From: a virus | Taxonomy: Duplodnaviria > Heunggongvirae > Uroviricota > Caudoviricetes | DNA length: 64,000 nt | IMG/VR virus record: IMGVR_UViG_3300011337_000467 | Span: 31,723-95,722 of that record | Direction: 5' to 3' (one strand) | In this document: piece by piece, positions 7,847 to 51,820 of the stretch | How the letters are laid out: every line of letters begins with the position of its first letter | Numbering within the stretch: the stretch's first letter is position 1 | Program-made: the position numbers and the translations under genes | The notes under the pieces: generated by a model | The model's input: the letters and a program-made list of their open reading frames with translations, nothing else | Told to the model about the DNA's origin: nothing | Database searches by the model: none

Positions 7847-8932
7847 ATGTATGTAGAAAAAGTCAATCAAGACAAAGTAAAAATATCCGCATGCTGTGTC
7901 AATACTCTTGGCCCAGAAACAGATACAATCGACTTTGATAATGACCTATATCTCCAATCACAGCGTGAGTTAGTTAGATCACGGCAATTGGTGCCTGGTT
8001 GTGATCGTTGTGATAATAATCCCAAAAACTTCAGTTTAAGGGACAGTGCAATTCAACAGTTTAACTCAGTTACAGTAAATCTGAATCAACCAACTCTTAC
8101 CAAATTAGACTGGAATGTGGATCCCATCTGTAATGCTCGTTGCATTCAGTGCAGTTCGCACTTTAGTAGTGCCTGGGCAGCAGAGGATGCGGCGCATGGC
8201 GTAATCATTGATGTGCGAGTAACTAACGCCACCAGGCACAACTCTGCCTGGGAATCCATTGATGTATCTCAATTGACGAGCCTTTATTTCAACGGCGGTG
8301 AACCCATGTTGAGCAAAGAGCCCTTGAAGTTTTTAAGAAAAATTGACCAAATTGGTACTATTTCTCAATTGAACCTATCATTTAATACCAATGGTAGCAT
8401 TAGGCCATCACAGGAGTTTATACAACTGGCAGCCAAGTGTAAATCACTGGTGGTAAATTTCAGTATTGACGGAACTGGATCAGCATTTGAATACATTAGA
8501 AATCCCTTGAACTGGGAAACTGTTGAGCAAAATATTTGTTGGTGGCATGAACAAAACATACCTGTTGTGAGTTTTAACGTGGCCTTTGTATTGGGTGTGT
8601 ACAATATTGACATTGCCGAAGACACTTACAATTGGTTTAGGAATATGCGCCAAACTTACAAAAAAATGTCAGGATTTGTAATTCATCCCTGCTACGGAAT
8701 TTTAGCATTGGAGTACAGTTCTGAAAAACTAAAACAAGTTTGGATGGAAAAATATGCTGGGCATAACTATGTCCACTCCACGATTCGTGACATATTAAAA
8801 AAATCCACCAGCACCCAAGATAACGGAAGCTGGCAACAATATCTAAAATCTATTGACAATAGACGCAATTTAGATTGGACCACGTGCTTGCCTAAACTAC
8901 ATGAGGCCTGGAAAAAATCCGAGTCTTTATAA
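7847..8932 (+). CDS. Radical SAM enzyme (subfamily A; N-terminal Cys-containing extension)
   Basis: 'CNARCIQC' CxxxCxxC cluster and 'FNGGEP' SAM-binding glycine motif. The track ORF starts at 7763 but overlaps the upstream gene, so the start was chosen at Met 7847. The start is uncertain. Confidence 0.55.
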   Translation: MYVEKVNQDKVKISACCVNTLGPETDTIDFDNDLYLQSQRELVRSRQLVPGCDRCDNNPKNFSLRDSAIQQFNSVTVNLNQPTLTKLDWNVDPICNARCIQCSSHFSSAWAAEDAAHGVIIDVRVTNATRHNSAWESIDVSQLTSLYFNGGEPMLSKEPLKFLRKIDQIGTISQLNLSFNTNGSIRPSQEFIQLAAKCKSLVVNFSIDGTGSAFEYIRNPLNWETVEQNICWWHEQNIPVVSFNVAFVLGVYNIDIAEDTYNWFRNMRQTYKKMSGFVIHPCYGILALEYSSEKLKQVWMEKYAGHNYVHSTIRDILKKSTSTQDNGSWQQYLKSIDNRRNLDWTTCLPKLHEAWKKSESL

Positions 8933-8970
8933 CCCTAGTAAATAATACACAACTTTTATGGAGACCTTCA

Positions 8971-9891
8971 ATGGCTGATCAAGCACAAACACAAATTCAA
9001 GTCAACATCGATTACTTGAAAACCACTCGAGTTCATATCTGCATGCCCTGTTATGGCGGCCAGCTGACAGAATCAACTTTTATGAGTTTTATCAAATGGG
9101 CCAATACCGCACGCCAACTGGGCATTGATTGGACAGTAGAAACCATGACAAACGAAAGTTTGATCAGTCGTGCTAGAAACACACTCACAGCCAAGTTCTT
9201 GAACACAGAAGGTTCCACACACTTGATGTTTATTGACGCTGACATTGGCTGGGAGCCATGGCACCTACTGGTGTTGCTAGACGCACAAAAAGATGTTATA
9301 GGCGGCCTATACCCAATGAAATCACTGCCTGTGAAATGGTGTGTGAACGGCATTCCTGGCCAAGCAGAAGATCCTACCTCTAACCATGTTGAAGTTACAA
9401 AAACTGGCACTGGTTTCTTGTTGATGAAACGTGAAGTATTTGAGAAATTGAATGCTCACCCCGCTGTGCGTCATTTCAACAATGACATTGGGCTTGACTC
9501 TAGTCTAGACAAATACATGAAAACCTACTTTGACACTGCTGTGCGTGAAAATCGCTACTACTCAGAAGACTGGACATTCTGTGAAAACTGGCGTGATCTG
9601 GGTGGTCAGGTTTGGATTGACAAGCGTATCCTGTTGCGTCACACAGGCACCTATGTGTTTGATTACAACACACATGAACAACTGTACAAGGATCTACGTG
9701 TGATGTTTGATCCCGAAGCTGCTCAAGCTGCCGCTGCAAAGGCCGCTAAGGCCACTGAGGAAGTGGCAGCAATGAATGCTACTCTTGCAGCCACACCAGC
9801 TGTGTTGGCTGATTCTGCCCCTGCAGAAGTCAAAACAGAAGTGTTGGCAAGTAGCAAGAAGAAATCCAAGAAAGAAGCAGCCGCGGCTTAA
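8971..9891 (+). CDS. Putative GT-A-like glycosyltransferase with an Ala/Lys-rich (histone-H1-like) C-terminal tail
   Basis: 'ICMPCYGG..LISRARN..FIDADIGW' resembles a nucleotide-sugar transferase core (DxD-like 'DAD'). The last ~60 aa are AAKAAKA/KKKSKK low-complexity. Confidence 0.3.
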   Translation: MADQAQTQIQVNIDYLKTTRVHICMPCYGGQLTESTFMSFIKWANTARQLGIDWTVETMTNESLISRARNTLTAKFLNTEGSTHLMFIDADIGWEPWHLLVLLDAQKDVIGGLYPMKSLPVKWCVNGIPGQAEDPTSNHVEVTKTGTGFLLMKREVFEKLNAHPAVRHFNNDIGLDSSLDKYMKTYFDTAVRENRYYSEDWTFCENWRDLGGQVWIDKRILLRHTGTYVFDYNTHEQLYKDLRVMFDPEAAQAAAAKAAKATEEVAAMNATLAATPAVLADSAPAEVKTEVLASSKKKSKKEAAAA

Positions 9892-9908
9892 CGGTAAATA
9901 CAGTTCGT

Positions 9909-12900
9909 ATGCATATTACAGAACTGGACTCCTTTAAACTAAGCGATGCTGTAAAGTTTCACAATCGTCTCAACCCTAAAATCTGGGGGCGAGACGAGCA
10001 CTTGTTGCCCGAGGTGCGTGAAAAACTCATGGCCATTGCGGACAATTTTCGCGAATTTCTTGGCGTGGGCGACCTTGACGTCCGAGACATAACCATCTCA
10101 GGCAGCAATGCTGCCTACAGCTATACTCCATATTCCGACATTGATCTACACCTTGTGGTAGAATTTCCTGCTGACGACGAAGTTTATCAGGAACTGTTCA
10201 ATGCCAAAAAATATCAATACAACGACGAACACAATCTAGCCATTGGCGGCGTGCCTGTGGAATTGTATGTGCAAAATGCAGCCGAATCCCCTGTGAGCCA
10301 AGGCGAGTATTCTATCCCACGTGAAGAATGGATTCAAGTACCACGCAGAAAACGTGCTAGAATTGATGATACCTGTGTGCGAGCCAAGGTAGAAGATTTG
10401 GATGCCAGAATACATTCTGCCATCCAATCTGGCAATGCTGAACACATGAGCAGACTGTGGGACAAGATCAAGTCCATGCGTCAAAGTGGCTTGGATGCTC
10501 ACGGTGAGTTTGGTTGCGAAAACATTGTGTTTAAAATTCTGCGCAACAAAGGCTGCATTAAAGATTTGCGCACAGCCAGAACAGCCGCACAAGATCATGA
10601 ACTAAGTCTAAAAGAACAAGACCATGCTCCGCAATTCCATTGGGGATTTGCAGAAGGCCATCAAGGTCAACCCTACAGCTCACCAGATGGCGTGGCACCC
10701 AGCACACAAATGTTCTTGAACGAAGATGACACTGAAAACATGGTGCAACAGTTCATTCAAGACACTGCTGAACGCTTGGGCATTGAGCGCATGCCTGAAA
10801 TTGTGCTGCATGACAATGATGGATGGAGTGAAGAAAATCATTCGTTTGGCATGTACATTCCCGATCAACATGTGTTGCATGTGAACATTCGCAATCGTCA
10901 TATCATGGATATTTTGCGAACCACAGCACATGAACTGGCACACTGTCGTCAAAATGAATTAGAACAATTGGATCACACATCTGGCAACACAGGGTCACCT
11001 ATAGAAAATGAAGCACACGCTGTGGCAGGCATCATCATGCGAGACTTTGCAGATGCACACCCAGACTTGTTTGACCAAGAAGCCATTCGTGAATCATCAG
11101 GATATATTCCTACCAAGGCACAAGCAAACGATCCACGCTTTAAGATGGCACTAACTGTTGATGTGCAACCAGGACAAACAGGTAAAGAAGCCAACAAGAT
11201 GAGACTGGCTACTGATGCACAAGGTCATCCACAACTGTTGCGAGCAGACGGCAAGATAAAGTTGGCAGAAAGCCTTGCCCAAGAATTTGAATTGTTTGAA
11301 GAACAAGACCTGTTTGAAATAAACATGGGCAGCAAGAGTCTACGCCGAGAAGCAGCCAAGACAGGTGCCATTGCTGGCATGGAATTTGAAATGATTGTGC
11401 CTGGCATGGAGTCTGAAGATCCTGAACAGGAACCCGACTATGATCAGGATGAACGCTGTGTTAGTATTGATGATGCTGTGAACTTCTTTCATGACGGCGA
11501 CTACAACGGTCGAAGAGAAGTTGCTGAATTACGTGACAGAATGTACAACGATTTCACTGAATGGCAGGATGATAAAATTCGCGATTCCTGGGGCATGGAC
11601 GGCGAAGAATACCTCAGAGAATGGATTGTGAATAATGTAGATGAAGACGAGTGGGCAGACCTTGATGCAGACAAAACCGATTCACTTGATCAATTTGTTG
11701 CTAATGTTTATGCTGATCCTTCTAGTGATTACTACAATCAGGCCTTTGATGAATACCGTGAAGAAAATCAGGACAACTGGGACGAAAGCGATTGGTTAGA
11801 TGCCGAAGACCTTGACCGCATGAGTGGCATTGAAAGTGCCTATGATATAACTTGGCCATACTGGACTAGCATAAACAGCGGCGAGATTGACGCAGATCAA
11901 GTGGCTGACGAATTCAGTCAGGCTGTGGGCCGTGAAGTGCGAGTGAACACAAGATATCATCAGTCCGGTGCCAGACCCGATCCAAGCAATCAGTTCTATG
12001 TGGTGGAACCAGACGGCAGTTTGGAAGGCGACAATCCAGGCGACGAAGGCCTGGAGTTTGTGAGCCCGCCCATGCCCATAGATGAACTATTGAAAGATTT
12101 GAACGCTGTCAAGTCCTGGGCTGGACGTATGGGTGTTTATACCAACAGTTCAACTGGCTTGCACATCAACATTTCAGTGCCTGACTACAGCAGAGACCGA
12201 TTGGACTTTGTGAAATTGGCCCTTCTGTTGGGCGACGAGTATGTGCTCAAACAATTTGGTCGTAGCTCAAATACCTATACCAAATCCGCCTTGGGCAAGG
12301 TGCGTGATCGTGTGCGATCCAACCCTGAAGACGCACAACGTTTACTGGACAAGATGAAGGGCCAAATGGGTGAACTGGCTTCTAAAGCCATCCATTCAGG
12401 CAGCACAGACAAATACACATCAATCAACACCAAAGACGGACACATTGAATTCCGCTCGCCCGGTGGCGACTGGTTGGACGACAACTTTGACAAGATTGAA
12501 AACACTCTGTTGAGATTCACAGTGGCTATGAGTGCGGCATTAAATCCTGAAGCCTATCGAGAAGAATACCAAAAGAAACTGTACAAGCTGTTGACTCAGG
12601 ATCAAAAGGATTCAGACACAATCCGATACTTCTCAGACTATGTGGCAGGCAAGATTCCCAAGGCTGCCTTGCGTAGTTTTGTGAAACAAGCACAACTAGA
12701 ACGCAAGGTAAAACGCGGTGAAGCCGGCAATCAAAAGATGTGGTGGAGCGTTACCAATCCCCCGCAAAGTTCTGCCGGTATAGAAGTTGTTGCTACCTCT
12801 CGAGAAGAAGCCATTGAAAAGGCCCTAGGCCCAGATGGCTATCCTTCGTGGACCAACACAAGACAATCCATTGTGGCCAAGCCCGTGCGTCCATACGAAG

Positions 12901-14915
12901 AAAAACCTGCACAAGATCAAGACAGTGCAACCTCTGGCAATTGGGGTGTTTGGGTAGCAATGCTTGATCGCTATGCTGAAATGAATGTTGACGGTCAGTC
13001 TGTAACTAGAAGATTTACTGACCAGGCGGCTGCGCAAGACTGGATACAGGATTACAACACACGGCAACCAGGAAATGGTCTTGCATTAGTTGCTCAAGAG
13101 ATTGAACCATCAGAACCACGAGACACATCACAGTTTGGTGCAGCACGTGGTGCTCCAAACTGGGAAATTCGACGTAACAGTGATCAAGAAGTTGTTCATC
13201 GCTTCAATGCAGACAATCAAAATGCTGCTATGATCCAAGCAACTGATTTTATGAACACTCAAGGATGGAGTAACGACGATTACACTATTCAATCAGCCAA
13301 CAGTCAAACAAATGTAAACCCTTTACGCCCAACTGGTCCAGGTCCGTGGGAAGTGGCCAACAGAAACAACAACCAAGTGTACTACAATACAGAGTTCACA
13401 AATCGCGGTGCCGCAGAATCAGAAGCAAGAACTTGGCTAAGTCAAAATGGCCACAATCCCAACGACTTTGAAGTAAGAACTAGAGAAGGTTCTAGATCAG
13501 ATGCTGAACAAAACGGTATCATTGACATTGAGCCAGACCTAGAATTTGCAAGCCCACAACAATACGAAATTTTTAATAATGATACTGGGCAAATTGCTGT
13601 TGCATTCCTTGCCCCCGATGATAGTGCGGCTATACAAAGATTACTACAGTACCGTGAAACCCATGGAGATGCTGACTATCGTACCCGCCGGTCTGCTGTT
13701 GCAGGATCCACAGCAGCCTTGGCACAACAGAGAGCCACGCCAGGCACATTCTCTGGTGCATGGAAGGTGTTGGTCAACGGTGAAGAAGTTTATAGATTCT
13801 CAGGCGTGGGTAATAGTCAATCGGATGCCAACAGAGTTGCAGCCACTTGGTTGCGAAACAATGGACGGGGCGTGTCAGGCGAAGGCTTTGAAGTGTATCC
13901 TATCATGACAGAAGGCAAGGATCGCTACGGCAATTTTGATCCTCCTGGTCCAGAGACACCGCCCACAATGCCAGCTGGCACTGTGCGAGTGGATGTGAGT
14001 GATGTGTATGACTGGTACAAACTGGGTCAGCATATTTCAAACATGAAGGGTCTGGGCAAACATGACTTTGGCAAAGGACCACCCAGTGCTATCATAAGTT
14101 TTGGTGACGAAGATCTAGAACATCAGTATATACAGGCATTGAAACAAACTGGGCTAACCACTACTGACATTGATCCTGTGGATCCCGCACAACCTGCAGG
14201 CATGCCGCGTCAAAAGACTGATCCTACCTACAATGTAACTGAAGCTGATGCCAGCGACTATGAACTGCATGATAGACCCAAGCTGGACCAAGTGTTGGCC
14301 AAATGCTGTCGCATGGTTGTACAAGGTCAACAGCGAGATCCCAAACGCTATGGACAAGTTGCTGCCTGTGTGATTGACCCCGACAACCGAATGATCTACG
14401 GCATCAACTTGCCTGCTAAAGATGGCACACGCCGCCATGCTGAACGAGTGGCCATAGACAAGTATAGAAAATCCATTGGTGAAATTCCACAAGGTAGTAT
14501 TGTGGTTACAACTTGCAGTCCCTGCAACTCGCCCATGGAAGAACGCCACGGAGAAAGTTGCAAAGACTTGTTAAACTCTGTAGGCATACACAAAGTATAT
14601 GCCGGCTATCAAGACCCCACACAGCATGACGATTCGGACGCTGACTTCCGTGTGTATGTGACTGAGAATGACCAACTATGGGGCGAATGTCAGTTGTTTG
14701 CTCAAACATTCTTGGGCAAGGAAGAACTGCCTGAAAACTTTGCTGATGGTCGGAATCCGCAAGACAAGGGCGATTCAAAAAGACACGGCGTGCCCACCAA
14801 AGCATCAGTAAGCACCTTGCGTAAAGTGGCCAAACAAGGCGGTCGCAAAGGGCAACTGGCACATTGGATGGCCAACATGAAGGCTGGGCGGGCTAAAGCC
14901 AAACGCAATAAATAA
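9909..14915 (+). CDS. Giant polyvalent protein: nucleotidyltransferase + HExxH metallopeptidase + GS-like amidoligase + 5 tandem repeats + CDA-like nucleotide deaminase
   Basis: Motifs in order: 'GSNAAYSYTPYSDIDLHLVV' (minimal NTase G[GS]...DxD), 'HELAH' (Zn peptidase), 'GLEFVSPP...GLHINISV' (amidoligase_2-like), five ~45-aa repeats, then 'HAE...TCSPCNSPMEE' (deaminase H[AC]E/PCxxC). Confidence 0.7.
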   Translation: MHITELDSFKLSDAVKFHNRLNPKIWGRDEHLLPEVREKLMAIADNFREFLGVGDLDVRDITISGSNAAYSYTPYSDIDLHLVVEFPADDEVYQELFNAKKYQYNDEHNLAIGGVPVELYVQNAAESPVSQGEYSIPREEWIQVPRRKRARIDDTCVRAKVEDLDARIHSAIQSGNAEHMSRLWDKIKSMRQSGLDAHGEFGCENIVFKILRNKGCIKDLRTARTAAQDHELSLKEQDHAPQFHWGFAEGHQGQPYSSPDGVAPSTQMFLNEDDTENMVQQFIQDTAERLGIERMPEIVLHDNDGWSEENHSFGMYIPDQHVLHVNIRNRHIMDILRTTAHELAHCRQNELEQLDHTSGNTGSPIENEAHAVAGIIMRDFADAHPDLFDQEAIRESSGYIPTKAQANDPRFKMALTVDVQPGQTGKEANKMRLATDAQGHPQLLRADGKIKLAESLAQEFELFEEQDLFEINMGSKSLRREAAKTGAIAGMEFEMIVPGMESEDPEQEPDYDQDERCVSIDDAVNFFHDGDYNGRREVAELRDRMYNDFTEWQDDKIRDSWGMDGEEYLREWIVNNVDEDEWADLDADKTDSLDQFVANVYADPSSDYYNQAFDEYREENQDNWDESDWLDAEDLDRMSGIESAYDITWPYWTSINSGEIDADQVADEFSQAVGREVRVNTRYHQSGARPDPSNQFYVVEPDGSLEGDNPGDEGLEFVSPPMPIDELLKDLNAVKSWAGRMGVYTNSSTGLHINISVPDYSRDRLDFVKLALLLGDEYVLKQFGRSSNTYTKSALGKVRDRVRSNPEDAQRLLDKMKGQMGELASKAIHSGSTDKYTSINTKDGHIEFRSPGGDWLDDNFDKIENTLLRFTVAMSAALNPEAYREEYQKKLYKLLTQDQKDSDTIRYFSDYVAGKIPKAALRSFVKQAQLERKVKRGEAGNQKMWWSVTNPPQSSAGIEVVATSREEAIEKALGPDGYPSWTNTRQSIVAKPVRPYEEKPAQDQDSATSGNWGVWVAMLDRYAEMNVDGQSVTRRFTDQAAAQDWIQDYNTRQPGNGLALVAQEIEPSEPRDTSQFGAARGAPNWEIRRNSDQEVVHRFNADNQNAAMIQATDFMNTQGWSNDDYTIQSANSQTNVNPLRPTGPGPWEVANRNNNQVYYNTEFTNRGAAESEARTWLSQNGHNPNDFEVRTREGSRSDAEQNGIIDIEPDLEFASPQQYEIFNNDTGQIAVAFLAPDDSAAIQRLLQYRETHGDADYRTRRSAVAGSTAALAQQRATPGTFSGAWKVLVNGEEVYRFSGVGNSQSDANRVAATWLRNNGRGVSGEGFEVYPIMTEGKDRYGNFDPPGPETPPTMPAGTVRVDVSDVYDWYKLGQHISNMKGLGKHDFGKGPPSAIISFGDEDLEHQYIQALKQTGLTTTDIDPVDPAQPAGMPRQKTDPTYNVTEADASDYELHDRPKLDQVLAKCCRMVVQGQQRDPKRYGQVAACVIDPDNRMIYGINLPAKDGTRRHAERVAIDKYRKSIGEIPQGSIVVTTCSPCNSPMEERHGESCKDLLNSVGIHKVYAGYQDPTQHDDSDADFRVYVTENDQLWGECQLFAQTFLGKEELPENFADGRNPQDKGDSKRHGVPTKASVSTLRKVAKQGGRKGQLAHWMANMKAGRAKAKRNK

Positions 14916-14921
14916 ACAATC

Positions 14922-17004: not shown

Positions 17005-17814
17005 ATGATTGATATCTGCACAGTTGTATTTGAATCCGAACTTGACATTCTAAAACTACAAGCCCGTAGCATTGAGCTATATTGTAAAGACATCGGCTTG
17101 AAAAATATCTTTGTAATGGTGAATGATCTTAGCCGAGTAGATCCTGCCTGGTATGGTGCATTTGCTGATCATGTAAAAATCGTTCCAAGATCTGCATTTG
17201 GTTGCGCTTGGAGTGACAACGGTTGGGTCAGTCAACAAGTGTTAAAGATATTAGGTGCAGCTCAGAGTGAGAATACCTGGTGCATGATTGTAGATGCCAA
17301 AACACTATTTGTGCGACCAATTGAGTTGGATCAAGTGATAGTAGACGGGCGTGCTGCTACAGGAAGTATGCCAATCTATCCTGTATTTGATGCCAGCCGA
17401 AACATAACCAACCAGTTGTTTGATATTGATTTGCCAGCACAGTTAGGCCCCGGTGGTGTGCCATTTTTTGTTGAACCCAGTTTAACAAGAGAAATGATTC
17501 AAGAAGTAGAACACAGAACTGGCCAAGACTTTAGTGACTACTTTCAACAACAGGGTCGGCTTACAGAGTTCATATTGTATTCAGGCTATGTGTGGTACCG
17601 AGATTGCACATTTGACAAGAGATATCACACACAATCAAACATTCATCCTGCTAATCTTTGCCACAGTGAAACAGGCATCTTTGATTCAAAACTTAACACA
17701 ATGAATCAGCCCAAAACTCTCACAGTAAGCATACACAGAAATGCATGGTCACAACTAAGCAAAGAACAACAGCAACAATATCATACATTGTTAGCCGAAA
17801 GAGGCATCTTATGA
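17005..17814 (+). CDS. Hypothetical protein
   Basis: 269-aa ORF; no motif recognised. Confidence 0.4.
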   Translation: MIDICTVVFESELDILKLQARSIELYCKDIGLKNIFVMVNDLSRVDPAWYGAFADHVKIVPRSAFGCAWSDNGWVSQQVLKILGAAQSENTWCMIVDAKTLFVRPIELDQVIVDGRAATGSMPIYPVFDASRNITNQLFDIDLPAQLGPGGVPFFVEPSLTREMIQEVEHRTGQDFSDYFQQQGRLTEFILYSGYVWYRDCTFDKRYHTQSNIHPANLCHSETGIFDSKLNTMNQPKTLTVSIHRNAWSQLSKEQQQQYHTLLAERGIL

Positions 17815-21052: not shown

Positions 21053-21060
21053 GGCATTAA

Positions 21061-39761: not shown

Positions 39762-39797
39762 GTATTTCTCTAAGCGGCCTGTCCGGCATCATCCCGC

Positions 39798-39826
39798 TAT
39801 ACAAACTCTGCTGCCTATGCTATAAT
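39798..39826 (+). promoter_or_regulatory. Candidate promoter (TATACA-17-TATAAT) upstream of queD
   Basis: Perfect -10 TATAAT at 39821-39826 with a 4/6 -35 at 39798-39803. GGAGG Shine-Dalgarno follows. Confidence 0.4.
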
Positions 39827-39844
39827 GTCATAGGAGGACAAATA

Positions 39845-40342: not shown

Positions 40343-40359
40343 TATAACAAGGAAAAATC

Positions 40360-40986: not shown

Positions 40987-41003
40987 TGGACATTGACCAT
41001 AAC

Positions 41004-41029
41004 AAAAACCCAGGTAACTCTGGGTTTTT
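41004..41029 (+). terminator. Rho-independent terminator hairpin
   Basis: AAAAACCCAG-gtaact-CTGGGTTTTT: 5-bp GC-rich stem, 6-nt loop, A-tract before and T5 after. Confidence 0.6.
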
Positions 41030-41069
41030 AACAAGTTATATCCAGGGCACAGAACAGATTAAATAAGAC

Positions 41070-43043
41070 ATGAACAAAAAAACAATAAGTTTTGTACAGC
41101 CCAACTTTCAACAAGGGCCTAAAGAATTCAATGCCTACTACTTGCCGTATTCTGCAGGTGTGATTTTGAGTTACGCCTTTGGGTTTGAGCATATTAAAAA
41201 TGCCTGGGAAATTGATGAATTAATTTGGCGTAGAGAGCCCATTGAAGAAGCAGCCGCAAGATTGCAACACAATGACATTGTGGCGTTTAGTGCCTATGTA
41301 TGGAATCACAGATACAACTACAAACTAGCACGTCGAATCAAAGAACTCAATCCCAAAGTAAAAATTATATTTGGTGGACCCGAGCCTGCTATTACGGATC
41401 CTGAATTGTTTGTGAAAGAACCTTTCATGGATCTTGTGAGCAAGATGGAAGGCGAGATCACATTCAAACGCATCCTAGAAGATTTTGACACAGACTTTAC
41501 GCACATTCCTGGCTTGTTGATTAACACACCAGCAGGGCTAGTAGACACTGGAGATTGTGCCAGAATCGACAATCTAGATCAAATCCCCAGTCCTTACCTT
41601 GCCGGCATCTTTGATCGAATCATAGCTGAAAATCCTGATGTAATTTGGAATGCTACATTGGAAACCAATCGCGGTTGCCCTTATCAGTGTACCTTTTGTG
41701 ACTGGGGCAGTCTCACTTACAACAAGGTCAAGAAATTTGAACTCACTAGAGTGTTCCATGAATTAGAATGGATTGGTCGCCATTGCGGATTTGTCACAAT
41801 CACAGATGCCAACTTTGGCATGTTCATTGAACGTGACAACATGATTGTGGACAAGTTGATTGAAGTACAAAAGCAATGGGCCAAGCTGGCGTCATTTTCT
41901 ATGACATGGGCCAAGAATCAAAAGAACGAAGTAGTGGGCATTGTAAAGAAATTGATCGACGAAAGCCCCAACTTTGGTCAAGGCCTTACTGTGAGTGTGC
42001 AAAGCATGGACCACGATGTGTTGGAAAACATCAAGCGTAGAAATCTTGATCAACACAAGATTGACGAAATCTTTGCTTTGTGTGATCGCAACAATATTCC
42101 TGTGTACACAGAAGTTATCTTGGGCTTGCCAGGTGAAACTGTGGAAACTTGGAAAAATGCTTTTTGGCAAATCTTCCGTGCAGGTAACCATACTGGTGTG
42201 AACATTCTCCAAGCGCAGTTGTTGGAAAATGCCGAGATGAATCTCTTGCAAAAACGAATGTGGAAGCTGGATTCAGTGCCAGTGTATGACTACATGAGTG
42301 GCAGCTATGGTGATGTAGACATGGACGAGTGTGTGGATGTTGTGGTAGGAACCAAAGACATTCCACGAGAAATGATGTTGGACACACTGGTATGGAACAG
42401 TTTTATTCAAACTTTTCACATCAACGGGTTGACCACGTACATTGCTAGATACTTGGCCAAAGCTCATGACATTGACTACAGTGAGTTCTACGACAGTTTG
42501 TACAAGTATATTGAAAGCGATGCATGGTTTCAACAACAGTTTGATGAGACACGCAGTTACTTTAGAAACTGGACCACAGACGGTCGTATCAATCATCCTC
42601 GAATTGGCAACATCGAAGTGTTTGGATGGAATCTTGTGCATCGAACCACTTTGTATATGCAACAGCAACAAAAGATCAATCATGTGTTCGATATCATTGA
42701 CAACTTTGTAAGAACCACGTATACTATTGACAGCAACATACTAAATCAGTTGTTGCAGTTTCAGAGAAACTATGTGATTGATTACAAAGATTTACCAGCA
42801 TTGCCAATTCAACAAAAGTTTGACTATGACTTTCTTGGATATCTACTGGACGATGCTGACATCAACACACCATGCTTGTACAAATTTGACAGCGTGGAAG
42901 ATAAAACCATGAGCATGGATCGGTTCTTAGAGAACATGTATTTTGCTCGCAAGCGGAATTTTGGAAAAACAACAATAACAAAAACTAATTCAGCCAACTT
43001 ACCTGAAATAGAATATGACAACAGAGAACTTATTACCCCTTGA
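41070..43043 (+). CDS. Class B (cobalamin-binding) radical SAM enzyme
   Basis: N-terminal B12-binding-like region (IVAFSAYVWNH...KIIFGGPEP) followed by 'NRGCPYQCTFCDW' CxxxCxxC. 657 aa. Confidence 0.65.
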   Translation: MNKKTISFVQPNFQQGPKEFNAYYLPYSAGVILSYAFGFEHIKNAWEIDELIWRREPIEEAAARLQHNDIVAFSAYVWNHRYNYKLARRIKELNPKVKIIFGGPEPAITDPELFVKEPFMDLVSKMEGEITFKRILEDFDTDFTHIPGLLINTPAGLVDTGDCARIDNLDQIPSPYLAGIFDRIIAENPDVIWNATLETNRGCPYQCTFCDWGSLTYNKVKKFELTRVFHELEWIGRHCGFVTITDANFGMFIERDNMIVDKLIEVQKQWAKLASFSMTWAKNQKNEVVGIVKKLIDESPNFGQGLTVSVQSMDHDVLENIKRRNLDQHKIDEIFALCDRNNIPVYTEVILGLPGETVETWKNAFWQIFRAGNHTGVNILQAQLLENAEMNLLQKRMWKLDSVPVYDYMSGSYGDVDMDECVDVVVGTKDIPREMMLDTLVWNSFIQTFHINGLTTYIARYLAKAHDIDYSEFYDSLYKYIESDAWFQQQFDETRSYFRNWTTDGRINHPRIGNIEVFGWNLVHRTTLYMQQQQKINHVFDIIDNFVRTTYTIDSNILNQLLQFQRNYVIDYKDLPALPIQQKFDYDFLGYLLDDADINTPCLYKFDSVEDKTMSMDRFLENMYFARKRNFGKTTITKTNSANLPEIEYDNRELITP

Positions 43044-43872
43044 CAATCCCATCGACATCAGTATTTTATTGCCCACTCGTGGCAGACCAAAACCACTAGA
43101 ACAATGCCTACGCACTCTACTTGACCGGGCCAAAGACCCCAGTCGAATAGAAGTGATGTTGGCATTTGATAATGATGATAGTGAAAACATCAAACACTTT
43201 GTGGATGTCGTACAACCTTATCTTGATGACCTTGGTGTAGAATACAGCGCCATACAGTTTGAAAGATTAGGGTACATGCGACTAAACGAGTACCTTAACG
43301 AGTTGGCCAAGCACAGTCAAGGCTCTTGGTTGTTCTTTTGGAATGACGATGCTGTGATGAAAACACAGGATTGGGATCAGGTGATTCGAGACAACGGGCA
43401 AGAATTCAATTTGCTCCGTGCCGAAACCAATCACGAACACCCTTATGCTATCTTTCCTATCCTGCCAAAGAAGTGGGTGGAAATTACTGGCCATTTGAGT
43501 CCGCATCAAATCAACGATGCCTGGACCAGCCAAGTGGCTTGGATGTTGGATATTGTGAAAACAATTCCTGTAATGGTACACCATGAACGCTATGATCTTA
43601 CTGGCGAGAACTTGGATGAAACATTCAAAGAACGTATCATGTTGGAAAACATGCCCGGCAATGATCCTAGAGATTTCAATCACATTACCTGGCGCAAACG
43701 CAGGGTTGAAGAAACTGAAAAAATTGCAGACTATCTTGACAGCATAGGCCGCGATACCACGTGGTTTAGAGATTCAATGACCGGTAAAAATCCAAACATC
43801 TGGGCCAGAATGGTCCTGCAAGATCCACACAAACGATTAAGACAATGGAAGGACAGTCCCTTTGAGCAATGA
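43015..43872 (+). CDS. GT-A fold (GT2-like) glycosyltransferase
   Basis: 'ISILLPTRGRP..L..CL.TLL....DPSRIEVMLAFDNDDSE' matches the GT2 N-terminal block with a DxD-like 'DNDD'. Start may lie a few codons later since it overlaps the radical SAM stop. Confidence 0.5.
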   Translation: MTTENLLPLDNPIDISILLPTRGRPKPLEQCLRTLLDRAKDPSRIEVMLAFDNDDSENIKHFVDVVQPYLDDLGVEYSAIQFERLGYMRLNEYLNELAKHSQGSWLFFWNDDAVMKTQDWDQVIRDNGQEFNLLRAETNHEHPYAIFPILPKKWVEITGHLSPHQINDAWTSQVAWMLDIVKTIPVMVHHERYDLTGENLDETFKERIMLENMPGNDPRDFNHITWRKRRVEETEKIADYLDSIGRDTTWFRDSMTGKNPNIWARMVLQDPHKRLRQWKDSPFEQ

Positions 43873-44635
43873 ACTAATAGACAAGATTGTGCAGTACTGG
43901 GATCGCCAGCCCTGTAACATCAACCACAGCGCCAGTGAAGTTGGTACTGAACAATTCTTTAACGAGAATAGCGAAAAACGCTACTTTGTTGAACCACATC
44001 TCAAAGATCTAGCACAGTTTCATTTGTATGCTGGCAAACGTGTGTTAGAAATTGGATGTGGCATTGGTGCCGATGCAGCTGAGTTTGCCAAGCATGGTGC
44101 CGAGTATGTTGGTATCGATCTCAGCAGTGAAAGCATTGCATTGGCCCGGAAACGATTTGAAGTTTTGGGACTGGAAGGTCAATTCATTCAAGGTAGCGGC
44201 GATGATGACTTGTCACACTTGGGCAAATTTGATTTGGTTTACAGTTGTGGTGTGTTACATCACTATCCAGACATTGATCGTGTGATTGAAAACATACACA
44301 GTTTGACCGTGGACGGTGGCGAGTTCAAAATGCTAGTGTATGCTCGTGACAGTTGGAAGTATGCCATGATCCAAAAAGGTCTGGACCAATACGAAGCACA
44401 AGCCGGATGTCCGTATGCCAAAGCCTACACAAAAGAAGAAGTCTATCAGTTGCTAGAGGGCAAATTCCATATCGGACGCATTAGACAAGCGCATTGTTTC
44501 ATGTATAATGTACCTAAGTACAAGCAAGGTATCTATGAACTGGAACCTTGGTTTGCGGCAATGAGCGAAGAAATGCGTCAAGCAGTTCGCGAATACTTGG
44601 GTTGGCATCTACTGGTTAAAGCAACAAAAATATGA
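43862..44635 (+). CDS. Class I SAM-dependent methyltransferase
   Basis: 'VLEIGCGIGADAAEFAKHGAEYVGIDLS' motif I/II and 'LVYSCGVLHH' motif IV-like block. Confidence 0.7.
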   Translation: MSNELIDKIVQYWDRQPCNINHSASEVGTEQFFNENSEKRYFVEPHLKDLAQFHLYAGKRVLEIGCGIGADAAEFAKHGAEYVGIDLSSESIALARKRFEVLGLEGQFIQGSGDDDLSHLGKFDLVYSCGVLHHYPDIDRVIENIHSLTVDGGEFKMLVYARDSWKYAMIQKGLDQYEAQAGCPYAKAYTKEEVYQLLEGKFHIGRIRQAHCFMYNVPKYKQGIYELEPWFAAMSEEMRQAVREYLGWHLLVKATKI

Positions 44636-45504
44636 AATTAAAAGTTAGTGAGTTATTTTATTCTGCACAGGGCGAAGGACGCTTTGTTGGTGTTCCTTCA
44701 GTGTTCCTACGCACATACGGATGCAACTTCACTTGCTCAGGCTTTGGCTGCGCTCCGGGCGTACAGTCTACCGAAGCAGACCAAGTGGCAAAGAACATAC
44801 ACCTGTACAAGGATTTTCTTGAACTGCCGCTTGTGAACACCGGATGTGATAGCTACGCTTCGTGGCATCCTGCATTTAAGGAACTAAGTCACACACTCAC
44901 ACATGATGAACTGATTGAAAAGATGTTGGTTCTTACACCCAATCATCACTGGCAACAAGACAACGGCAATGATGTGCATCTTGTGATCACAGGTGGTGAA
45001 CCGCTGTTGGGTTGGCAGCGTGGATACGAAGAACTGCTGTCGCAAGGCAGTATGGGTGACTTAAAGAACATCACATTCGAAACCAATGGCACTCAAAAGT
45101 TACAGCCAGCATTTCGAACATTTTTGCACGAATGGCGTCGCCCTGCACTAGGGGCCGTGCCCACGCGAGAAATTACTTTCTCAGTAAGTCCCAAGCTATC
45201 AGCGTCAGGCGAATCGTGGTCGGATGCTATCAAGCCCGAGATTGTGGCAGACTATCAAATGCATGGCACAGTATATTTAAAATTTGTGGTAGAAACACTG
45301 GCACACTTTGAAGAAGTTGATCGTGCTGTGGCTGCATATCGTGAAGCAGGTTTCCGTGGTGTTACCTATGTGATGCCACAAGGCGGTGTGGTCACTCCAT
45401 ACGAACGCAACCGAGTGAATGTAGCTGACTGGGCACTGGCTCGTGGTTATAACTATAGCCCAAGATTGCATGTGGATCTCTGGGGCAATGGCTGGGGCAA
45501 ATAA
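44632..45504 (+). CDS. queE: 7-carboxy-7-deazaguanine synthase-like radical SAM enzyme (QueE family)
   Basis: 'SELFYSAQGEGRFVGVPSVFLRTYGCNFTCSGFGC', 'VITGGEP' and 'FSVSPKL' parallel the E. coli QueE blocks. ATGA overlap with the methyltransferase gene. Confidence 0.65.
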   Translation: MKLKVSELFYSAQGEGRFVGVPSVFLRTYGCNFTCSGFGCAPGVQSTEADQVAKNIHLYKDFLELPLVNTGCDSYASWHPAFKELSHTLTHDELIEKMLVLTPNHHWQQDNGNDVHLVITGGEPLLGWQRGYEELLSQGSMGDLKNITFETNGTQKLQPAFRTFLHEWRRPALGAVPTREITFSVSPKLSASGESWSDAIKPEIVADYQMHGTVYLKFVVETLAHFEEVDRAVAAYREAGFRGVTYVMPQGGVVTPYERNRVNVADWALARGYNYSPRLHVDLWGNGWGK

Positions 45505-45761: not shown

Positions 45762-46862
45762 ATGAGTTATCTATTTACAAGTGAAAGTGTGTCAGAAGGA
45801 CATCCGGACAAAATCGCGGATGCTATTAGCGATGCAGTGCTAGACATTGTGATGGCTAAACAGGATCCCGCTCTACGTTGCGCATGCGAAACGTTGGTTA
45901 CTACCAATCGTGTGGTGGTGGCAGGAGAATACAAAGGCGTTTTACATGCTGAGGAAGTTGAATCAGCAGTGAGAAAAGTTATCAAGGATGTGGGTTACGA
46001 ACAGTCAGGTTTTGATTGGCGTACGGCAGAAATTACCAACTTGTTACACGGGCAAAGTGCAGATATTGCACTGGGTACAGATACGTTTGGCGCAGGCGAT
46101 CAGGGCTTGATGTTTGGTTATGCCTGCAACGAAACTGATAATCATATGCCCAGTGCAATCTATTGGAGCCATCGTATTGTAGAAACTTTGACTCGTGTAC
46201 GAAAAAGTTTAGCACTGCCGTGGTTAGGACCAGACGCCAAAAGTCAAGTAACGTTTGAATACAACGACAATGGTACTCCCAAACGCATTGCCAAAGTAGT
46301 TTGCTCAACTCAGCATCATGAGTCCGTGGACATCGACCAAGTTCGAATGTCTGTTGAAAGTGTAATCCGTGGTACTCTTCCTGAAAAATATGTTGATGAC
46401 AAAACTGAATTTTATATTAACCCTACTGGTAGATTTGTTATTGGTGGGCCTGATGGCGATACTGGGCTTACTGGCCGCAAGATTATTGTTGACACTTACG
46501 GCGGGTATAGTCCTCATGGTGGCGGAGCCTTCAGCGGCAAAGATCCTACTAAAGTGGATCGCAGTGCTGCCTACTTAACACGCTGGATTGCCAAGAACAT
46601 TGTGGCAAGTGGTCAAGCACCGTGGGCTACAGTGCAGATCAGTTACGCAATTGGACTTGCACAACCCATGAGTTTCTACGTGGAAACAGCTGACGCACAA
46701 CAAGGACGTGATCTAACTAAATGGATTCAGGATAACGTTGACTTGACACCCAAGGGTATTATTGAACGTTTTGACTTGTTCCGCCCTATCTATAGTACAA
46801 CAACTAACTACGGGCATTTTGGCAAAGACTATTTGCCTTGGGAAACTGTGGATTTATTCTAA
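45762..46862 (+). CDS. metK: S-adenosylmethionine synthetase (MetK)
   Basis: 'LFTSESVSEGHPDKIAD', 'GAGDQG' and 'DTYGG' match MetK blocks. 366 aa. Confidence 0.9.
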   Translation: MSYLFTSESVSEGHPDKIADAISDAVLDIVMAKQDPALRCACETLVTTNRVVVAGEYKGVLHAEEVESAVRKVIKDVGYEQSGFDWRTAEITNLLHGQSADIALGTDTFGAGDQGLMFGYACNETDNHMPSAIYWSHRIVETLTRVRKSLALPWLGPDAKSQVTFEYNDNGTPKRIAKVVCSTQHHESVDIDQVRMSVESVIRGTLPEKYVDDKTEFYINPTGRFVIGGPDGDTGLTGRKIIVDTYGGYSPHGGGAFSGKDPTKVDRSAAYLTRWIAKNIVASGQAPWATVQISYAIGLAQPMSFYVETADAQQGRDLTKWIQDNVDLTPKGIIERFDLFRPIYSTTTNYGHFGKDYLPWETVDLF

Positions 46863-46871
46863 GGAAACTAT

Positions 46872-47258
46872 ATGGGATTTTTTGATAGATTTAAAAAGAA
46901 ATCTGAGCCCAAGGTCAAGGCCGAGACCAAGCCCAAGGTACCGGTAAAAACAGAAAAGCAACTTGCTACAGAAAAGGGCGAGCCTTATGTGGCTGTGCTT
47001 AGTATGGATGTGGATCCCAACAACCTGCATCAAGGTGCATTTGAACTAGACTGGAACGAAATCTTTGTGGCACGACTGGTCAAGGCTGGCTATATGTTGA
47101 AACCTGCTGACAGTGACGGCGAGATTGTGGATCGATGGTTTCAAAATGTGTGCCGACATGTTGTGATGGAAACATGGGAACAAGAACAAGCAATTAAAAA
47201 CTCCGGCATGTATGTGCAAAAACGTGATCTCGGAGACGGACGGAGCGAAATAGGATGA
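46872..47258 (+). CDS. Hypothetical protein (Lys-rich N-terminus)
   Basis: 128-aa ORF; no motif. Confidence 0.4.
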   Translation: MGFFDRFKKKSEPKVKAETKPKVPVKTEKQLATEKGEPYVAVLSMDVDPNNLHQGAFELDWNEIFVARLVKAGYMLKPADSDGEIVDRWFQNVCRHVVMETWEQEQAIKNSGMYVQKRDLGDGRSEIG

Positions 47259-47731
47259 TATTCAATCACATTAAAGACCTCAAAGCCGAAGGTAAAAAAA
47301 TCGGCATCACATTCAGTCAATTTGACATGCTACATGCAGGACACATTGCCATGTTGGCTGAAGCAAAAAATCATTGCGATTATCTAATTGTAGGCCTGCA
47401 AACAGATGCCAGCATTGACCGACCGGGAATTAAAAATCCCCCTGTGCAAAGCATTGTGGAACGCCAGATACAATTGAGTGCATGTAGATTTGTAGACGAA
47501 ATTGTTGTGTACACTACCGAACAAGACCTAATTGACTTGATACTAACCTTGCCAATCGATGTACGCATACTTGGTCGAGAATATGAAGATACTAACTTTA
47601 CTGGTCGCAATGAAGGTGCTGGGCAACACATTGAGCATGTGTTTAACAGCAGAGATCATTCATTCTCAAGTTCAAGCCTGCGCAAGCGTGTGGTGGCTGC
47701 CGAAACAGAAAAAGTATTACTACAACGATGA
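47255..47731 (+). CDS. Cytidylyltransferase-fold sugar-phosphate nucleotidyltransferase (RfaE domain II / TagD-like)
   Basis: 'IGITFSQFDMLHAGHIAMLAEAKNHCDYLIVGL' matches the GTFDxxHxGH...YLIVG signature. ATGA overlap upstream. Confidence 0.65.
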   Translation: MIFNHIKDLKAEGKKIGITFSQFDMLHAGHIAMLAEAKNHCDYLIVGLQTDASIDRPGIKNPPVQSIVERQIQLSACRFVDEIVVYTTEQDLIDLILTLPIDVRILGREYEDTNFTGRNEGAGQHIEHVFNSRDHSFSSSSLRKRVVAAETEKVLLQR

Positions 47732-49914: not shown

Positions 49915-49927
49915 TCAAGAAAAATTT

Positions 49928-50472: not shown

Positions 50473-50503
50473 TTATTGGGATAAATAAACACGGAGTTTA
50501 TCT

Positions 50504-50791
50504 ATGTCACGACCCAAGCCACAGGTGTTAATTGAAATCACCAACAAACAAACTTACAAGACCGAGCAAGTGTTGGCCTCGGAAGGCGTATGGGCAGTTT
50601 TTTACGAAAACAAACCAATCAACTTAAAAACTTCAAATATGCTTACTCAGTATCCTGGTCCTAAGTACAAAAAAGTCTCATTCTCAAATCCTGGACATGC
50701 CAAAAATCTGGCTCGCAAACTTAACACACAGTTTCAAACCACAAAGTTTTCAGTAGTGTTGTTGACTACTGGTGATAAAATTTATCCATAA
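50504..50791 (+). CDS. Hypothetical protein
   Basis: 95-aa ORF with a GGAG Shine-Dalgarno upstream. Confidence 0.4.
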   Translation: MSRPKPQVLIEITNKQTYKTEQVLASEGVWAVFYENKPINLKTSNMLTQYPGPKYKKVSFSNPGHAKNLARKLNTQFQTTKFSVVLLTTGDKIYP

Positions 50792-50794
50792 CGT

Positions 50795-51820
50795 ATGTTT
50801 GACAAATGGCCGACCAAACTTAATATCGAGTTGTCAACAGCCTGTAACGCAGCCTGTCCGCAGTGTTCTAGATATCTAGATGATGATCCAGAACTTGGTA
50901 TTGTAGAAAATCCTAACTTACCACAAAACACATTGACCTTGGATGTGTTAAAAACTTTGATAGATCATGAATGGTTAAAACAAGCCAAGCATGTTAAATT
51001 CGAAGGCACTCATGGCGAACCAACCATGGCCAAAGATTGCACTGACATACTCAGATGGTTTAGAGAAGTAAATCCCACTGTTACCTTTGCATTGCATACC
51101 AATGGTAGTACAAGAAATAAAGAATGGTGGCGCGAGCTTGCACAATTTTTTCAATACAATCCGGAACGACGCAGTACAGTGACTTTTAGTTTGGATGGCA
51201 TAGAAGATACCAATCACATATATCGTCGACGCACTGTGTGGAAAAAGATCATGGAAAATGCTCAGGCATTCATTGATGCTGGTGGGGTGGCTGTGTGGGA
51301 TATGATTGTATTTGAACACAACGAGCATCAAGTGTTGAAGGCGCGGAAGTTGGCCAAGAGCATGGGATTTTATTCATTCGGGGTCAAAGTCAGTCAGCGA
51401 ACTCTTATTAGGCCAATTGAATGGCTCAAGCAACCCAAAACTTGGAAAGAAAATCAAGGCACTGGCACGGTCAAAATTAATTGCATAGGCAAGCAATTTG
51501 ATGAGTTGTTTTTAAGTGCCAACGGACTTTATATGCCGTGTTGTTTTATCAACGAAAATGCATACGGTCCTGCTATGCCTTCAACACAAAAAGAAATTGA
51601 AGAAGTGCTAGGAGATTTTTCTCAATATCACAGCAGTCACGGACTTGATCATGCTCTTGAATTATTTCATCGTGTGAGTGATCGGTGGGAAACCAATCCC
51701 ATGGAAATTTGCAAAAATATGTGTGGCAATGGCCATTGGCCGGACCGAATGCAACAAAAACAAGTGACTGAAGCATGGCCCGAACGGTTCCAAGCACAAC
51801 ACAATCAACCTACTTTGTAA
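50795..51820 (+). CDS. Radical SAM enzyme (subfamily B; C-terminal Cys-rich extension), paralogue of 21061..22125
   Basis: 'IELSTACNAACPQC' near the N-terminus. Blocks 'HTNGSTRNKEWW', 'DGIEDTNHIYRRR', 'DAGGVAVW' and 'PCCF' align with the minus-strand paralogue. Confidence 0.6.
   Translation: MFDKWPTKLNIELSTACNAACPQCSRYLDDDPELGIVENPNLPQNTLTLDVLKTLIDHEWLKQAKHVKFEGTHGEPTMAKDCTDILRWFREVNPTVTFALHTNGSTRNKEWWRELAQFFQYNPERRSTVTFSLDGIEDTNHIYRRRTVWKKIMENAQAFIDAGGVAVWDMIVFEHNEHQVLKARKLAKSMGFYSFGVKVSQRTLIRPIEWLKQPKTWKENQGTGTVKINCIGKQFDELFLSANGLYMPCCFINENAYGPAMPSTQKEIEEVLGDFSQYHSSHGLDHALELFHRVSDRWETNPMEICKNMCGNGHWPDRMQQKQVTEAWPERFQAQHNQPTL

Follow-up and report, generated by a model that had tools for sequence, protein, structure and literature searches.

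Four SPASM/twitch-class radical SAM enzymes of one superfamily in the genome of an uncultured jumbo phage, with a possible role in sugar tailoring

We analyzed four radical S-adenosylmethionine (SAM) enzymes encoded in a stretch of 64,000 nucleotides of tailed-phage DNA (positions 31,723 to 95,722 of the IMG/VR virus record IMGVR_UViG_3300011337_000467). The whole stretch is referred to as the window, and positions are counted from its first nucleotide. The four open reading frames (ORFs), here called A1, A2, B1 and B2, are all open, with products of 330-390 amino acids (aa):

7793 to 8932, plus strand: A1, radical SAM enzyme; twitch-type cysteine domain at the N-terminus
29575 to 30567, plus strand: A2, radical SAM enzyme; SPASM-like domain at the N-terminus
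21061 to 22125, minus strand: B1, radical SAM enzyme; cluster motif at the extreme N-terminus, twitch-type domain with four cysteines (C...PCC...CxxxC) at the C-terminus
50795 to 51820, plus strand: B2, paralog of B1, with the radical SAM cluster at C17/C21/C24 and auxiliary cysteines C230, C249, C306 and C310

The sequence analysis identifies all four as intact SPASM/twitch-class radical SAM enzymes, each with a predicted SAM-cleaving [4Fe-4S] site at a CxxxCxxC motif and with a second, cysteine-rich domain that is predicted to bind one or more auxiliary Fe-S clusters. This second domain is located at the N-terminus in A1 and A2 and at the C-terminus in B1 and B2. The assignment to the radical SAM enzymes, which had been proposed in the first-pass annotation of the window from the letters alone, was confirmed by Pfam and NCBIfam matches and by invariant motifs. 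The scores to the Pfam profile Radical_SAM (PF04055; gathering cutoff 29.5 bits) were 30.2 bits for A2, 35.9 bits for B1 and 38.9 bits for B2, while A1 (27.7 bits) fell just under the cutoff, yet passed the NCBIfam model NF033640 (N_Twi_rSAM; 172.7 bits vs. a cutoff of 170). Homologs were collected for B2 (1049), A1 (87) and A2 (731), and subsets of these were aligned into families of 66 (B), 61 (A1) and 50 (A2) sequences. All three cysteines of the CxxxCxxC motif are invariant in each of the three alignments. Also conserved are GGEP178-181, TNGS209-212 and S234/D236 next to C123/C127/C130 in the A1 family (residues counted from the GTG codon at 7763), and G160-D161 (GNGDP), TNG187-189 and S211/D213 (SVDAG) next to C111/C115/C118 in the A2 family. 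In the B family, C17/C21/C24, G71, G74, N103-G104 and D134-G135 are invariant and P76 is nearly so. A GGE-type motif, a ribose-binding TNG motif and a partial TIM-barrel fold were found, and since the SAM-binding motifs are invariant in the family alignments, the concern that the CxxxCxxC matches might be spurious, without GGE or ribose motifs, was not borne out. The motif by itself is not evidence of a radical SAM enzyme, because the eight copies in stop-to-stop ORFs of 80 aa or more include three, at nucleotides 21120, 39668 (in an upstream extension of a QueD-like ORF) and 62128, that are outside radical SAM proteins; the other five are in proteins that also match a radical SAM profile.

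An additional, conserved cysteine-rich domain is present in all four proteins. In the A1 family, C44, C45, C80 and C83 of the N-terminal domain are invariant and C22 is present in more than 90% of the sequences. The architecture proposed earlier for B1 and B2, with the cluster at the extreme N-terminus and a cysteine-rich C-terminal domain with a PCC motif, held true, and the four cysteines of this domain (C230, C249, C306 and C310) are invariant in the family. Seven more cysteines are invariant in the A2 family (C23, C38, C41, C43, C84, C89 and C270). The canonical seven-cysteine SPASM signature (C-x9-15-G-x4-C ... C-x2-C-x5-C-x3-C ... C) was not recovered: the CX2CX5CX3C part that is typical of SPASM maturases is absent from A1, B1 and B2, and the spacing in A2 (C-x14-C-x2-C-x-C ... 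C-x4-C ... C) is not canonical. Since A1, B1 and B2 have only four to five auxiliary cysteines, they look like "twitch" enzymes with a single auxiliary cluster. The suggested search with the Pfam SPASM profile (cutoff 21.5 bits) gave a match above the cutoff for A2 (34.7 bits, residues 23-89) and a score just under it for B1 (20.6 bits); A1 and B2 did not match this profile.

The start of A1 had been placed at the ATG codon at 7847, which is too far downstream because the codon for the conserved Cys22 (nucleotides 7826-7828) is located upstream of it. The start codon is likely TTG at 7793 or GTG at 7763, of which the former fits a 98% identical database protein of 379 aa. The earlier grouping of A1 and A2 in one subfamily corresponds to a remote kinship that is visible at the profile level. 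The start of B1 at 22125 agrees with the family consensus.

B1 and B2 were aligned end to end by BLASTP with 29% identity (E = 6e-46), and the alignment includes all of the blocks that had been listed for the pair (HxNTNGS, DGxxDTxxxYR, AGGxAVW and PCCF). The pairwise similarity of A1 and A2 is barely detectable (E = 2e-4 over 67 aa), while the two family profiles were aligned over 236 columns, including the N-terminal cysteine domain, with a probability of 97.4% (E = 1.4e-11). In the radical SAM core, the B family profile matched both the A1 family profile (98.4%, E = 7e-15) and the A2 family profile (90.8%, E = 1e-6). The mutual kinship of the four proteins, on which the earlier grouping depended, is thus upheld by core matches of 90.8-98.4%, and because of these matches we place A1, A2 and the B proteins in one superfamily with two architectures. 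As judged from the homologs retrieved, this is a large, uncharacterized environmental superfamily that is common to big aquatic phages and bacteria. A comparison of the N-terminal domain of A1 with the C-terminal domain of the B family by hhalign aligned only a beta-hairpin and the CC motif (21 columns, E = 0.003, probability 11%), which is suggestive, but not proof, of the one domain being a circularly permuted version of the other.

A recent duplication of B1 and B2 was considered and rejected: they are only 29% identical, each is about as near to bacterial homologs as to the other, and in a neighbor-joining tree (rough, and without support values) they are located in separate clades with many bacterial sequences in between. 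B1 and B2 are in all appearance old out-paralogs. All four genes were also identified on one related 58.9-kb IMG/VR contig, with 87-97% identity, and three of them (A1, A2 and B1) have the same neighbors in relatives down to 38-60% identity. The four are old resident genes of a jumbo-phage lineage rather than recent duplicates.

The lineage itself was traced with the family-B DNA polymerase (PolB), which shares 51% identity with its counterpart in Sinorhizobium phage Phosso, 47% with that in Agrobacterium phage Atu_ph07 and about 42% with those in Rak2/CBB/GAP32-like jumbo phages. Related IMG/VR contigs are up to 364 kb in size, a contig deposited at NCBI as "uncultured Caudovirales phage" reaches 370 kb, and the related samples seem in many cases to be freshwater metagenomes. 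Based on the kinship of PolB, the large related contigs and the freshwater samples, we consider the window to be part of the genome of an uncultured aquatic jumbo phage. A megablast search with 24 kb of the window gave no match in 50,697 deposited phage genomes. In tblastn searches against the same genomes, the radical SAM proteins gave matches of only 21-26% identity (Pelagibacter phage Mosig, Campylobacter CP220-like phages, Vibrio K566/K567 and Ralstonia RsoM2USA), with no match for A2. No cultured-phage or species-representative bacterial genome encodes a protein with more than about 47% identity to any of the four, and these families are without a characterized or cultured-phage member.

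Multiple radical SAM genes in a single phage have been described before, and the earlier statement that such a complement is unusual for a phage was too strong. The Campylobacter phages CP220 and CPt10 have 11 and 12 radical SAM genes, respectively (PMC2853527), 12 were identified in the marine T4-like genome EVG TARA_ERS488813_N000010 (PMC5332604) and cassettes of radical SAM genes are present in pelagimyophages (PMC7029224). As in the window, many radical SAM genes of unassigned role are scattered in these large T4-related genomes. The similarity at the sequence level is low, with B2 being only about 22% identical to its match in CP220 (E = 4e-4), and three of the four genes studied here are located in conserved modules rather than in variable cassettes.

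We compared the four proteins to characterized families and to solved structures. The best described architectural match was for A1, of which residues 20-382 align end to end with positions 3-397 of NF033640, with an N-terminal cysteine domain followed by the radical SAM core. The N-terminal twitch architecture thus already has an NCBIfam model, the function of which is uncharacterized. A2 (31.2 bits), B1 (31.0 bits) and B2 (62.0 bits) matched this model in the core only and below the cutoff of 170, and B1 and B2 differ from it by having the cysteine domain at the C-terminus. The anaerobic sulfatase-maturase (anSME), viperin and Cfr/RlmN families, which had been named as candidates, all fell away in the profile search. 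The scores to the anSME model TIGR03942 (cutoff 349 bits) were 27.0 for B1 and 32.6 for B2, with A1 and A2 not listed at E ≤ 1; those to the viperin model NF038283 (cutoff 180 bits) were 27.4 for A1, 13.6 for A2, 16.1 for B1 and 28.4 for B2; and Cfr/RlmN gave no profile match at E ≤ 1. The MoaA model TIGR02666 (cutoff 284 bits) scored 21.4 for A1, 15.9 for A2, 15.3 for B1 and 27.6 for B2. The four proteins differ from anSME, SuiB, SkfB, CteB and PqqE by having no RRE domain, and they score far under every NCBIfam cutoff for these enzymes. The twitch enzymes that act on sugars or nucleosides, BtrN, BlsE, DesII and SpeY, are only 10-20% identical to the four (12.8 bits to the NCBIfam model for BlsE vs. 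a cutoff of 400). The position of the cysteine domain in A1 and A2 is permuted relative to these enzymes, and no genes for aminoglycoside or nucleoside antibiotics are located nearby.

The AlphaFold2 models of B2 and A1 are confident, with a predicted local distance difference test (pLDDT) score of 92.6 and 91.2, respectively. The solved folds closest to B2 are SuiB, SkfB, anSME, ChlB and CteB, and spore-photoproduct lyase scored only 9.2-9.3 in the fold comparison. Single-sequence searches of the PDB sequences gave nothing better than E = 0.003. With family profiles, the best PDB match for A1 was BlsE (E = 1.9e-8), followed by MoaA and ChlB, with viperin also among the top matches, while the B family matched NifB, ChlB, Tes and MoaA with E-values around 1e-3.

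In addition to the enzymes themselves, we examined their gene neighborhoods. Earlier it had been proposed to look for conserved partner genes in related phages, and such neighbors were found for A1, A2 and B1 and not for B2. The clearest case is A1, which is flanked by two genes:

6718 to 7815, plus strand: nucleotidyltransferase-like protein (cytidylyl/adenylyltransferase fold), directly upstream of A1; 21.6 bits to CTP_transf_like and 24.7 bits to TIGR00125
8971 to 9891, plus strand: GT-A-like glycosyltransferase candidate of 306 aa, directly downstream of A1; match to phrog_1574 with E = 8.5e-38

The product of the downstream gene carries the DxD-type motif SRARNTLTAKFLNTEGSTHLMFIDADI, as well as the segment ...ARNTL...THLMFIDADI..., and matches Anp1 weakly (E = 0.019). 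In four related phage loci (L057, L144, L227 and L228), the nucleotidyltransferase-like gene is syntenic and 50-70% identical, and the GT-A-like protein is 76-86% identical, where A1 is 37-72% identical. The order of the locus is kept in relatives, with genes for a ClpB-like protein, the nucleotidyltransferase-like protein, A1, the 306-aa protein and a giant nucleotidyltransferase/amidoligase(/deaminase) protein. In the same four loci A1 diverges much faster than its flanks, including the GT-A-like protein (76-86%) and ClpB (64-73%), a possible sign that selection on A1 is relaxed or diversifying.

The giant protein in the window is 1668 aa long (9909-14915) and contains a nucleotidyltransferase domain (residues 56-123), an Amidoligase_2 domain (662-855) and a dCMP/cytidine deaminase domain (1467-1566). 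Its homologs, which range from 480 to more than 1500 aa, are located at the same place downstream of A1 and the GT-A-like gene, and we take the protein to resemble the giant "polyvalent" proteins of large phages. On the other side of A1, the chaperone genes at 1913-5036 encode a ClpB-like double-AAA protein (2757-5036) and, ahead of it, a 261-aa protein of which the syntenic homolog is annotated as DnaJ in L057, L227 and L228.

The genes that flank B1 form a module from 17005 to 21097 on both strands, as defined by Pfam matches and by co-occurrence with B1, and a further gene is located divergently to B1:

17005 to 17814, plus strand: DUF6492 protein
17745 to 18326, plus strand: PIG-L deacetylase
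18323 to 19132, plus strand: SGNH-like hydrolase, with invariant blocks GCSFS / GCSNGG / DPGYH
19120 to 20247, minus strand: 375-aa protein without an assigned function
20168 to 21097, minus strand: second DUF6492 protein
22640 to 23083, plus strand: Dps/ferritin-like protein, 50-52 bits to DpsA models, which is below the cutoff

For B1, 148 related viral loci were matched, and co-occurrence was counted over 80 of these that were kept (59-89% identity). The adjacent DUF6492 gene was present in 60 of the 80 loci, the gene for the 375-aa protein in 53, the SGNH-like gene in 52, the PIG-L gene in 50 and the second DUF6492 gene in 49, while the Dps-like gene and PolB were present in 74 and 69, respectively. 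For the two DUF6492 proteins and the 375-aa protein, profile searches against PDB sequences gave no matches, and a literature search retrieved nothing on the N-terminal twitch architecture or on DUF6492. The Dps-like protein may serve as a buffer or supply of iron for the Fe-S enzymes, or in DNA protection.

A2 has a 52% identical ortholog in the 370-kb phage, where the order of PolB, a methyltransferase, a 240-aa protein, A2, a 516-aa protein and a 177-aa protein is kept. The neighbors of B2 are kept in close relatives only, and its homologs at 36-38% identity are found in unrelated contexts.

We also searched for bacterial relatives by a pattern scan over 185,579 species-representative genomes. 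No A1-type genes were found in these genomes with two motif patterns of the A1 family. In contrast, 519 B-type genes were found, mostly in metagenome-assembled genomes (MAGs) of Bdellovibrionota, Myxococcota and Gammaproteobacteria; some of them lie on contigs in the Mb range, and a single one comes from an isolate, Bdellovibrio sp. HCB2-146. At least two A1/A2/B-type paralogs were located within ±8 kb in 30 of the 80 loci that were fetched, and eight in two loci. The most common Pfam family among the neighbors was Radical_SAM itself (18/106, plus 17/85 after those matched by tblastn were dropped), followed by GT2/GT1/GT4 glycosyltransferases and then by carbamoyltransferases, QueC-like proteins, SDRs and one UDP-glucose dehydrogenase. 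Five loci (L204, on the Bacteriovoracaceae MAG chromosome OZ242254.1, L216, L172, L193 and L189) contain five to eight A1/A2/B-type paralogs within 17 kb, along with extra radical SAM/SPASM genes that were not matched by tblastn with the phage proteins. This paralog array is apparently undescribed. Multi-copy bacterial arrays fit the suggestion, made for the phage genes, of substrate-specific variants of one reaction type.

Fusion proteins were identified among the homologs. In P0288 (552 aa), an A2-type enzyme is fused to an N-terminal sulfotransferase-like domain (19.2 bits, cutoff 22) with motifs resembling the loop for 3'-phosphoadenosine-5'-phosphosulfate (IPKNATSW and REPIDRWIS); the idea that this domain corresponds to the 240-aa protein encoded upstream of A2 was rejected. 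Five A1-type proteins of 555-584 aa (P0155, P0156, P0158, P0160 and P0161) have an unannotated N-terminal domain of about 200 aa with a PGSGG(M/Q)W loop, and the extensions of P0155, P0156 and P0161 matched neither Pfam nor any protein of the window.

Other genes in the window encode further radical SAM enzymes, proteins of a 7-deazaguanine-type set (36114-45504) and enzymes of SAM or sugar metabolism:

36114 to 36806: FolE
38536 to 39369: PP-loop/Asn-synthase-like protein of 277 aa
39366 to 39761: HIT protein
39677 to 40342: QueD/PTPS-like protein
40360 to 40986: YhhQ/Vut_1 transporter-like protein
41070 to 43043, plus strand: fifth radical SAM protein, B12-binding and methyltransferase-like; 43.4 bits to Pfam B12-binding and 39.1 bits to Radical_SAM
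44632 to 45504, plus strand: sixth radical SAM protein, divergent and QueE-like, with an N-terminal FYSAQGEG motif
45762 to 46862, plus strand: MetK, S-adenosylmethionine synthetase; 114, 144 and 196 bits to the N, M and C domains of Pfam S-AdoMet_synt
47255 to 47731: second cytidylyltransferase-like protein
53780 to 55315, minus strand: asparagine-synthase-like glutamine amidotransferase; 149 bits to TIGR01536 (cutoff 267)

The first five of these proteins and the QueE-like protein make up the 7-deazaguanine-type set. The B12-type protein scored 218 bits to a KedN5-family model, below the cutoff of 700. For the QueE-like protein, QueE models matched the first ~50 residues only (34-45 bits, cutoffs 200-300) and the match to Radical_SAM was weak. 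These two genes bring the number of radical SAM genes in the 64-kb window to six, the count given at the outset. MetK, with all three Pfam domains, is located among users of SAM, namely the six radical SAM enzymes and at least two SAM methyltransferases. Elsewhere in the window we identified genes for an NDP-sugar epimerase/dehydratase, a DegT fragment, a GT2 glycosyltransferase, methyltransferases and the AsnB-like amidotransferase listed above. The amidotransferase gene is kept beside the B2 region in close relatives, and the amidation of a sugar acid or of a deazaguanine carboxylate is a possible role of its product. No match to a TGT/DpdA-type transglycosylase, a hydroxymethylase or a 5-HMUDK kinase was obtained among the ~45 window proteins that were scanned.

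We tentatively suggest that the four enzymes tailor sugars or nucleotide-sugars by radical chemistry, a reading that we favor while holding it to be somewhat short of probable. It is based on gene context: the trio of genes for the nucleotidyltransferase-like protein, A1 and the GT-A-like protein, the DUF6492/PIG-L/SGNH module, the sugar genes elsewhere in the window and the glycosyltransferase genes near the bacterial homologs. The first-pass annotation had proposed nucleic acid, glycan, peptide or cofactor as substrates, a range so wide that it could hardly fail, and the context now leans toward glycans or nucleotide-sugars. Twitch enzymes such as BtrN and BlsE carry out chemistry of the oxidation, epimerization, dehydration or C-C rearrangement type on sugar-type substrates. 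By analogy, each of the four enzymes would reductively cleave SAM to a 5'-deoxyadenosyl radical that takes a hydrogen from a sugar or a nucleotide-activated sugar, after which the auxiliary cluster would finish one of these reactions, and the paralogs would act on different substrates or positions. In the proposed route for A1, the nucleotidyltransferase-like enzyme would activate a sugar phosphate, A1 would tailor it and the GT-A-like enzyme would transfer it. B1 might have the pair of DUF6492 proteins as partners, along with the PIG-L de-N-acetylase and the esterase of the SGNH type, while the phage MetK, and possibly the Dps-like protein, would provide the SAM and iron consumed by the enzymes. 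Candidate targets for the glycan are the virion, the host envelope or DNA.

Several observations weigh against a role in sugar tailoring. Each of the links to sugars is one of guilt by association, and the evidence is weak, or at the level of motifs, for DUF6492, for the assignment of 8971-9891 as GT-A-like and for the fused sulfotransferase domain. The best PDB profile matches of the A1 family (BlsE, MoaA and viperin) act on nucleosides or nucleotides. The neighbors of A2 are PolB and the unannotated 516-aa protein, which is better conserved (79%) than A2 itself (52%), and the synteny of A2 may reflect a stable replication block rather than a shared pathway. B2 is without a conserved partner, its homologs adjoining a Clp protease in one jumbo phage and being flanked by an SbcCD-like pair on one side and a nuclease on the other in a second phage. 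Finally, some of the "bacterial" MAG contigs are probably from phages, as PhoH and peptidase M15 are among the neighbors.

Alternatively, the substrates could be nucleotides or DNA, with the enzymes producing a hypermodified base or nucleotide analog, or rearranging a group on the phage DNA, to evade restriction by the host. Remodeling of a DNA modification by a phage radical SAM enzyme has one known case, gp53 of M6, which has a fold of the spore-photoproduct lyase type (PMC8989533). The FolE, QueD-like, QueE-like and YhhQ-like genes in the window, the dCMP-deaminase domain in the 1668-aa protein near A1, the location of PolB near A2 and B1, and the profile matches of A1 to enzymes acting on a cytosine nucleoside (BlsE), GTP (MoaA) and CTP (viperin) are in line with such a role. 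We nevertheless consider it unlikely, given that the viperin and MoaA models scored far under their cutoffs, that no transglycosylase, hydroxymethylase or kinase of the types named above was matched among the scanned window proteins, and that the bacterial arrays adjoin glycosyltransferase genes and not genes for DNA modification. The structural comparison of B2 points in another direction, with SuiB, SkfB, anSME, ChlB and CteB as its nearest solved folds, and the multi-copy radical SAM/SPASM arrays of Myxococcota and Bdellovibrionota resemble natural-product clusters. Both would fit enzymes that act on peptides or proteins, either as maturases of peptides that are made on the ribosome and then modified (RiPPs) or as cross-linkers or oxidizers of a virion or host protein, like sactisynthases or anSME. 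However, the cluster in B1 and B2 is located at residue ~17, which leaves no space for an N-terminal domain of the RRE/PqqD type, and no such Pfam match was obtained for any of the four. The small ORFs adjacent to the genes are neither cysteine-rich nor repetitive and none is precursor-like, although a precursor could be encoded elsewhere; the models for RiPP maturases and anSME scored 11-33 bits vs. cutoffs of 300-850; and A1 and the B proteins have four to five auxiliary cysteines, as compared to seven to eight in the two-cluster SPASM peptide maturases. A peptide or protein substrate therefore seems quite unlikely.

It is more improbable again that the four are auxiliary metabolic genes that boost a cofactor or lipid pathway of the host, with chemistry of the MoaA, PqqE, heme, hopanoid or tetraether type. 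A role in host metabolism was suggested by the authors of the CP220 study (PMC2853527), and the four are weakly similar to the models for tungsten-cofactor maturase, MoaA, HpnH, Tes and AhbD, but at only 10-50 bits vs. cutoffs of 225-650. No partner genes of those pathways were seen in the window, and the four have long resided in conserved modules of the phage, with at most ~47% identity to cultured-phage or species-representative bacterial genomes, rather than being host-like cassettes. Part of the probability is assigned to none of these four roles.

If the sugar-tailoring role is correct, the unusual glycans made by such phages would join the known ways by which phages alter surfaces or DNA. 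In its most far-reaching form, which we regard as doubtful, the A1/A2/B proteins would be modules of an undescribed combinatorial system for radical tailoring of glycans, in which every paralog would carry out one type of C-H activation on its own sugar or position. The system would be present in Bdellovibrionota, Myxococcota and other bacteria as arrays of up to eight or more copies and would have been co-opted by aquatic jumbo phages that have their own MetK, nucleotidyltransferases and glycosyltransferases for a phage-specific glycan on the virion, the surface of the infected cell or DNA. If sugar tailoring is wrong, what remains is ordinary: further uncharacterized radical SAM paralogs in a large phage, an observation that goes back to 2010. 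That one large phage can have several such genes was already known; the new findings are modest and consist of the families without characterized or cultured-phage members, the three stable neighborhoods and the large bacterial paralog arrays. Of the unexplained "metabolic" genes in large aquatic phages, those for radical SAM enzymes are among the most frequent, and the three neighborhoods, most clearly that of A1 with its nucleotidyltransferase-like and GT-A-like partners, provide anonymous families with testable pathway hypotheses. Since the families are large (87 to more than 1000 homologs at 90% clustering) and none is characterized, a single solved substrate would annotate thousands of environmental genes.

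Two minor features of the window were also recorded. An ORF of 198 aa at 35465-36061 matches only positions ~24-87 of the 360-position profile for DegT/DnrJ/EryC1 aminotransferases, and may represent a gene for a sugar aminotransferase that is truncated or split. Three tRNA genes (Met-CAT, Arg-TCT and Leu-TAA) are clustered at 63594-63851 on the plus strand.

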